Positions 15,503 to 15,990 of a stretch of 64,000 nucleotides of DNA are shown here, piece by piece. The position numbers were made by a program, and so were the translations under genes. Origin of the DNA: Escherichia coli (lineage in GTDB: Bacteria > Pseudomonadota > Gammaproteobacteria > Enterobacterales > Enterobacteriaceae); assembly GCF_048403405.1 (NCBI RefSeq), contig NZ_CP183129.1; one strand, given 5' to 3'. How positions within the stretch are numbered: position 1 is the stretch's first letter; the number at the start of each line of letters is the position of its first letter. Under the pieces are notes generated by a model that was not told the origin of the DNA, did no database searches, and worked only from the letters and a program-made list of their open reading frames with translations.

Positions 15503-15664
15503 CTGAAACTGTCCAGGTTTTGGGGTTCAGTTCATACACGCCGCATCCGGCATAAACAAAGCGCACGTTGTTACAATTTACGTTTTAAACCTACGTGCGC
15601 AATAACCCAATAACCCAGACTACGCCAACAGAAGTGCGTTTCTGGGGCGTGTTTTGCCAGGAGT

Positions 15665-15877
15665 TTAATCTCGCGTTTCGATGGTGAGCGGGCGAACCAG
15701 ACCATAAATCACCATTGGCGTTCCGAGGCCAATCAGCAATAAACGGTAGATAATTGAAGGTTTAATACGCTTAATCTGTACTGTGGATGTTTTACTGGAG
15801 TTATTCATTAGTTTGGCCAATAGTTCCATTATTTCAATATGATAAGCCTCGCACTGTTGAAAAGCCAGGCTGCACAT
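15665..15877 (-). CDS. hypothetical small protein with hydrophobic C-terminal segment
   Basis: 70-codon ORF divergent from yiaW; no homology recognised; may be spurious. Confidence 0.2.
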   Translation of the reverse strand: MCSLAFQQCEAYHIEIMELLAKLMNNSSKTSTVQIKRIKPSIIYRLLLIGLGTPMVIYGLVRPLTIETRD

Positions 15878-15990
15878 TTCAGAAAGTATATAAAAAACAA
15901 TATGTCGTTATATAAATAAGGAAATTGCACCGCATTATGGTATTTCATAATATGCGTTAATTGTTCTTTTCTATATTCTCTGAGGGAAAT

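Follow-up and report, generated by a model that had tools for sequence, protein, structure and literature searches.

The open reading frame that runs divergently from yiaW in the 64,000-nt stretch of Escherichia coli DNA analyzed here (the window) is very probably what an in-frame deletion has left of a gene for a 104-aa protein with two transmembrane (TM) helices, and it is decaying as a pseudogene rather than serving as a functional small protein. A sequence-only reading of the window had described a 70-codon minus-strand ORF (15665..15877) with a hydrophobic C-terminal segment, located in AT-rich DNA just after a palindromic unit (PU) interrupted by an insertion sequence (IS), and had proposed either a small membrane protein or simply the promoter region of yiaW. 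The ORF is indeed present and translates to MCSLAFQQCEAYHIEIMELLAKLMNNSSKTSTVQIKRIKPSIIYRLLLIGLGTPMVIYGLVRPLTIETRD, its hydrophobic segment is encoded where it was described, and the DNA toward yiaW has a GC content of 0.319 (15809..15990) vs 0.507 for the whole window. The length of the 70-codon ORF alone is not beyond chance, and the conserved unit comprises the 47 codons from the ATG at 15808; PGAP calls exactly these 47 codons as the hypothetical protein WP_001066082.1. The locus has the following features:

12375..14003, plus strand: aldB, followed by the REP/PU, the IS, the region 15535..15990, yiaW, yiaV, and yiaU.
14104..15534, plus strand: insertion sequence of the IS3 family, with ends TGAACTGCACCCCAAA and TTTGGGGTTCAGTTCA.
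15535-15537 and 15538-15551, no strand assigned: right TAC target duplication and right half of the PU, ACGCCGCATCCGGC, the PU being split by the IS.
15589..15668, plus strand: 3' remnant of hicB, its last ~26 codons (TYVRNNP..DYANRSAFL..RVLPGV*), with the stop codon TAA at 15666-15668.
15665..15808, minus strand: the 47-codon ORF, MNNSSKTSTVQIKRIKPSIIYRLLLIGLGTPMVIYGLVRPLTIETRD, corresponding to residues 1-38 and 96-104 of the intact 104-aa protein.
15694..15695, minus strand: deletion junction between codons V38 and R39, located by DNA alignment with the intact loci L086 and L087.
15695..15754, minus strand: hydrophobic segment IIYRLLLIGLGTPMVIYGLV, most of the ancestral transmembrane helix 1.
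15809..15877, minus strand: 5' extension of 23 codons, non-coding.
15866..15894, plus strand: counterpart of the yiaWV sigma-70 promoter, positioned by alignment to K-12.
15991..16314, plus strand: yiaW (DUF3302), the divergent neighbor of the ORF and a control in the analysis of selection.

The DNA alignment with L086 and L087 revealed a clean in-frame gap of 171 nt (57 codons) in both the window and K-12, and imperfect 11-nt direct repeats, GCGGACCAGGC and GCAAACCAGAC (plus strand), border this stretch in the intact genes. At the matching position, E. whittamii and Escherichia sp. E1V33, of a cryptic Escherichia clade, possess a 104-aa ORF, MNNTSNTSTVQLKRIKPSIIYRLLLIGLGTPLVIYGLV-CGILGMFGYDQVRWNDTVIHGLLALPAGLLAGLSVSVFLTVLIGTIACFGLWLYSLV-RPLTIETRD. 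In translated comparisons (tblastn), residues 1-38 and 39-47 of the remnant demonstrated 87-100% identity to the intact Escherichia genes, and its first 38 residues are 55-58% identical to the homologs from Pseudocitrobacter and Citrobacter sp. R56. The start and stop codons of the remnant are shared with the intact family members. With residues 39-95, the remnant has lost the last part of helix 1, the WN loop, and helix 2 in its entirety. At codon 39 of the remnant (15692..15694), exactly at the junction, the truncated alleles are split between CGC (Arg) and TGC (Cys), which could reflect two resolutions or origins of a repeat-mediated deletion, or a later C-to-T change.

A database search with the 70-aa query returned 46 organism-named matches, all of them from E. 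coli (one from an unclassified Escherichia sp.) and none from another genus; thus, no short-form ortholog outside Escherichia was found among these 46, and the outgroups have the long form. In E. coli itself, the long form is present in 28 of 5426 complete genomes, for example EC42405 (WP_001064341.1) and 2013C-4282. The 104-aa gene lies between yiaW and aldB in Citrobacter amalonaticus, and a 103-aa homolog convergent with aldB is found in Franconibacter, where yiaWV is absent. Since the gene stands beside aldB in Franconibacter without yiaWV, it has long been a neighbor of aldB and is no passenger of yiaWV. Homologs of 103 aa, 51-53% identical, also exist in Pseudocitrobacter vendiensis and Citrobacter sp. 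R56.

The parent gene belongs to a widespread family. A profile search over 1.84 billion representatives yielded 268 clusters at E <= 1e-3, of which 73 reach E <= 1e-10, with matches mostly of ~100-125 aa that align end to end and carry the names "hypothetical" or "inner membrane protein" in their sources. Eight residues are near-invariant (G27, G40, G46, N53, G59, G88, L89, and W90). The AlphaFold2 (AF2) model of the intact protein (mean pLDDT 87.8) is a hairpin of two helices, 17-44 and 59-95, joined by a short beta-turn loop. In the alignment of the intact gene of L086 (2511..2825) with its relatives, the loop motif G..FG..TV.WN....G and the tail GLW.YS..RPL are conserved. Scans of the intact protein against Pfam and NCBIfam returned no match above the cut-offs, and neither collection has a model for the family; a Foldseek comparison of the AF2 model with the PDB produced no match better than E = 2; PADLOC found no significant match, the best (E = 0.044) being to a generic 2TM model and for one ortholog only; and the gene neighborhoods of distant family members have no shared context. 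The label DUF3566 (PF12089), given in UniRef to one Franconibacter homolog, was considered and rejected, as there was no match at E <= 10 in 7 members or at E <= 0.01 in 41 members of the family.

The remnant shares with this family the start codon, the syntenic position convergent with aldB, and the divergent orientation to yiaW. It differs in the absence of residues 39-95, in its apparently neutral evolution, and in retaining only one of the eight near-invariant residues, G27. With 57 codons missing, it has no end-to-end match to the family, and a two-TM hairpin is lacking, since only residues 17-38 of helix 1 are left. Pfam and NCBIfam scans of the 70-aa ORF gave nothing above the cut-offs. 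Other, independent losses of the same gene were observed as well. In Escherichia sp. MOD1-EC7003 (L006, ~3740..3900), the 5' half and the promoter-side sequence are deleted and the C-terminal half, ending LYSLVRPLTIETRD, is kept; this loss is independent of the deletion in the window. In the hicAB-GH127 haplotypes of the CB7453 type, the membrane-protein gene is nearly gone, with the last 8-11 codons left (PLTIETRD*), and yiaWVUT is absent.

To describe selection, we used counts of segregating nonsynonymous (N) and synonymous (S) sites, which are not tree-based, over a small sample of 7 distinct truncated alleles with 19 events:

Truncated E. coli alleles (7), 47 codons: N 14.5, S 4.5, ratio 1.05.
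Intact genes, the same 47 codons: N 5, S 13, ratio 0.13.
Intact genes, all 104 codons: N 9, S 21, ratio 0.15.
yiaW of the matching strains: N/S per-site ratio 0.05-0.11.

The truncated alleles differ from the intact genes over the 47 codons (Fisher test, p = 0.007), from the intact genes over the 104 codons (0.002), and from yiaW (0.0002), and pairwise N/S values agree with the segregating-site counts. Purifying selection on the remnant was therefore not observed, its ratio being ~1.05 vs 0.13-0.15 in the intact genes. Because the substitutions since the deletion have accumulated at this neutral ratio, an unannotated pseudogene is the best description of the ORF. The ORF is open in 7 of the 7 sampled truncated alleles, with start and stop codons retained. 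The short-form variants in the databases include frameshifts (P0036 and P0041), a truncation (P0045), and an in-frame 9-nt deletion (P0003), and the first 23 of the 70 codons are disrupted elsewhere, as detailed below. Two further natural variants place charged residues within the helix, G29E (P0021) and G36D (P0033). When random substitutions were simulated in the observed numbers, the ORF was spared with a probability of 0.49-0.79 in single alleles and of 0.33 when the 19 events were pooled; because sparing by chance is this frequent, the open frame in all 7 alleles is weak evidence.

The main alternative to a decaying remnant is continued production of the 47-aa peptide, which would act as a small single-pass membrane protein with a function kept or gained after the deletion; it might, for instance, modulate YiaW/YiaV. 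Several observations are consistent with it. The deletion is in frame and no sampled allele has lost the start or stop codon; the positive-inside patch KRIKPS precedes a 20-residue hydrophobic stretch, so membrane insertion is possible if the ORF is translated; the divergent promoter region is the same as in strains having the intact gene; and PGAP annotates the 47-codon ORF as a CDS in most genomes. Between the window allele and the intact allele of E. coli there are three synonymous changes and one nonsynonymous change, a count that taken alone fits either constraint or neutrality. Nevertheless, the alleles taken together show none of the constraint seen in the matching codons of the intact genes, natural short forms carry helix-breaking charged residues and frameshifts, and chance suffices to explain why the frame is still open. 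Moreover, no Shine-Dalgarno-like sequence can be read before the ATG at 15808, the 47-codon ORF is missing from the curated K-12 annotation, and it matches no family or defense-system model. We consider this alternative unlikely, and slightly more so in its stronger form, in which most E. coli still translate the remnant, co-opted into the role of a small membrane protein that could, for instance, interact with YiaW/YiaV. If true, the latter would be a documented case of small-protein birth by internal deletion of a larger membrane protein. The small membrane protein suggested from the sequence thus has a real transmembrane-helix sequence behind it, namely helix 1 of a two-helix 104-aa gene that has suffered a deletion, and this sequence now evolves neutrally.

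A second alternative, namely that chance alone opened this frame in the AT-rich promoter region of yiaW and that it has no coding ancestry, has to be weighed separately for the two parts of the 70 codons. Six-frame listings contain many chance ORFs of such length, and for 15809..15877 this explanation is correct: the comparison of 13 loci from E. coli and close relatives shows that the 23-codon extension is a chance open frame over the yiaWV promoter region. In particular, it contains in-frame stops in L088, L090, and L091 and a frameshift plus stop in L089 and L091; the upstream ATG has changed to GTG in L086, L087, L092, and L093; and the substitutions between the window and K-12 are nearly all nonsynonymous. 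In agreement with the exclusion of these codons, the more distant family members have their start 8-12 residues ahead of the KRIKPS motif, a spacing in line with the ATG at 15808. For 15665..15808, however, a chance origin is refuted by the homology and synteny with the intact 104-aa genes and by the existence of 50-58% identical proteins in Pseudocitrobacter and Citrobacter, and as an explanation of the ORF it is very unlikely.

The yiaWV promoter of K-12 has been reported as a sigma-70 site, CAGACA-17-TATAAA, on the basis of Genomic SELEX, that is, in-vitro binding of RNA polymerase, and the yiaWV spacer is also listed as an H-NS site (PMC3946193). Its counterpart in the window has the -35 element CAGGCT at 15866-15871 and the -10 element TATAAA at 15889-15894, so that the first codons of the 70-codon ORF overlap the reported promoter site; consensus promoter scans of the region gave nothing above the shuffle expectation. 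The suggestion that the ORF is simply the yiaW promoter region therefore holds for ~15860..15990, where the reported site is located, and fails for the 47-codon part, which has coding ancestry. The IS is ~330 bp from this promoter site, with the gene remnant and the hicB fragment in between, and the analysis gave no sign of an effect of the IS on yiaW expression. Published work on yiaW deals with an IS1 insertion within that gene and has no bearing on the ORF.

This hicB fragment, absent from the sequence-only reading, is a second relic in the same region. It aligns to the intact hicB genes of E. coli EC42405 and CB7453, which also have hicA; the intact comparator matches the Pfam domain HicB_lk_antitox (PF15919) with E = 8e-36. 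Where both are complete, hicB and the 104-aa gene are convergent and share 4 nt (TTAA). Compared with the intact HicB antitoxin gene, the window has ~20% of the length left, the frame is broken, and hicA is absent, and thus it contains no complete HicB_lk_antitox domain with a partner hicA. The remnant carries an 8-nt tandem duplication of CAATAACC (two copies, 15600-07 and 15608-15) not seen in K-12, together with a deletion of 12 nt (15645|15646) that K-12 shares. With these changes the frame is broken, and the fragment is therefore dead. A hairpin at 15625..15658, noticed by eye and considered as a possible aldB terminator, was dropped, being a product of the 12-nt deletion and having no terminator-scan match.

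That the ORF might encode a hydrophobic toxin of a type I toxin-antitoxin-like system or an accessory partner of hicAB, as its short hydrophobic peptide and the 4-nt overlap of the ancestral gene with the hicB stop codon could suggest, is hardly credible, given that the region 15535..15990 contains no Rfam RNA, that PADLOC reports no significant match, that Citrobacter amalonaticus and Franconibacter have the intact gene but no hicAB, that CB7453-type E. coli have hicAB but not the gene, and that the locus is single-copy.

On the aldB side, the region is bordered by the IS, and its insertion into a PU was confirmed. Copies of the target duplication TAC are present at 14101-03 and 15535-37. The whole region 15535..15990 is 100% identical to that of E. 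coli CFSAN061763, a genome without the IS, in which the PU GCCGGATAAGGCGTACACGCCGCATCCGGC is uninterrupted and consists of GCCGGATAAGGCGTAC followed directly by ACGCCGCATCCGGC; the PU is also unsplit in K-12. The insertion point was thus the PU loop, with duplication of TAC. The element has the two-ORF arrangement of the IS3 family, and its transposase possesses HTH and rve domains. A second copy, inverted, lies at 19362..20792 and is identical to the first over 1431 bp (100%). Both copies are in PU loops, with duplications of TAC and GTTA, respectively, and together they bracket the remnant ORF and yiaW-yiaV-yiaU-yiaT; inversion of this 3.8-kb segment could be possible between them. Targeted insertion into PUs has been described for IS1397 (PMC1525189). 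The element in the window resembles IS1397 in belonging to the IS3 family, in inserting into PU loops, and in producing 3-4-bp duplications, a likeness of family and target. In Citrobacter amalonaticus (L094, 5388..6751), an IS3-family element is likewise located between the intact 104-aa gene and aldB; it seems to represent a parallel insertion in a second genus, the target presumably being a REP here too.

In general, deletions and IS insertions into PUs are concentrated in the aldB-sgbE interval, which is a hotspot of both. The remnant locus itself is carried by roughly 3,770 E. coli genomes and is single-copy (a median of one place per genome), and the Rfam scan detected no RNA family inside 15535..15990. 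In the REP cluster just 3' of aldB (13993..14067, plus strand), we observed a sub-threshold Rfam match to naRNA4 (29.7 bits vs a gathering cut-off of 59.5), which is probably mere REP similarity. Just past the second IS copy, the window has an intact GH127 (beta-L-arabinofuranosidase-like) gene at 20857..22875 (minus strand); at the GH127 position K-12 has only the ysaD and ysaC remnants, and thus genes lost by K-12 are kept in the window strain. An initial idea, that yiaWVUT replaced hicAB-GH127 as a block, was rejected, as the window has both yiaWVUT and the intact GH127 gene; it is also contradicted by E. coli strains that have hicAB, the intact 104-aa gene, and yiaWV. These combinations indicate that the haplotypes differ by separate deletions.

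These observations are best explained by the following scenario. The ancestral order was likely aldB, hicA-hicB, a convergent gene for the 104-aa two-TM protein, and divergent yiaW-yiaV, an arrangement that persists in a few E. coli, EC42405 among them. In the lineage of the window, as the alignment shows, hicA and most of hicB were lost, leaving ~80 nt of the 3' end of hicB. The 104-aa gene lost 171 nt; the deletion itself is directly seen in the alignment, and its mechanism was probably recombination or replication slippage between the imperfect 11-nt repeats that flank the deleted stretch. Because this deletion was in frame, a 47-codon ORF survives, and it encodes the N-terminal tail, the greater part of helix 1, and the nine C-terminal residues. 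Later, an IS3-family element that apparently targets PUs inserted into the PU downstream of aldB, as its target duplication attests.

A few kilobases away in the variable aldB-sgbE locus, ysaC (b4648) and ysaD (b4649) of K-12 are likewise short relics of genes that other E. coli have in intact form. The former corresponds to the end of a regulator of the AraC family, and the latter resembles an inner piece of the sugar-utilization genes nearby. Both are annotated as pseudogenes in MG1655, whereas the remnant ORF and the hicB fragment are unannotated there, and the curated MG1655 record has no gene between yiaW and aldB; the ATG of the 47-codon ORF is at 3754611 (plus strand) in MG1655. In contrast to ysaC and ysaD, the reading frame of the remnant is still open between a start and a stop codon of its own, owing to the in-frame deletion. 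We regard the locus as a case of ordinary gene decay, the value of which is mainly for annotation: the 47-aa "hypothetical protein" that RefSeq lists in most E. coli should be flagged as a pseudogene remnant, along with the hicB fragment. The parent two-TM family, widespread and without a Pfam model, could merit a family definition.

Validated E. coli small membrane proteins of <=50 aa were found by tagging and by initiation-site ribosome profiling. The remnant resembles them in its length of 47 aa, its single predicted TM helix, and its intergenic location beside genes for membrane proteins. It differs from them in the absence of purifying selection, in having no short orthologs outside E. 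coli, and in its recent origin by internal deletion. This comparison calls for caution in small-protein discovery, as an in-frame deletion of a membrane-protein gene can mimic a small membrane protein.
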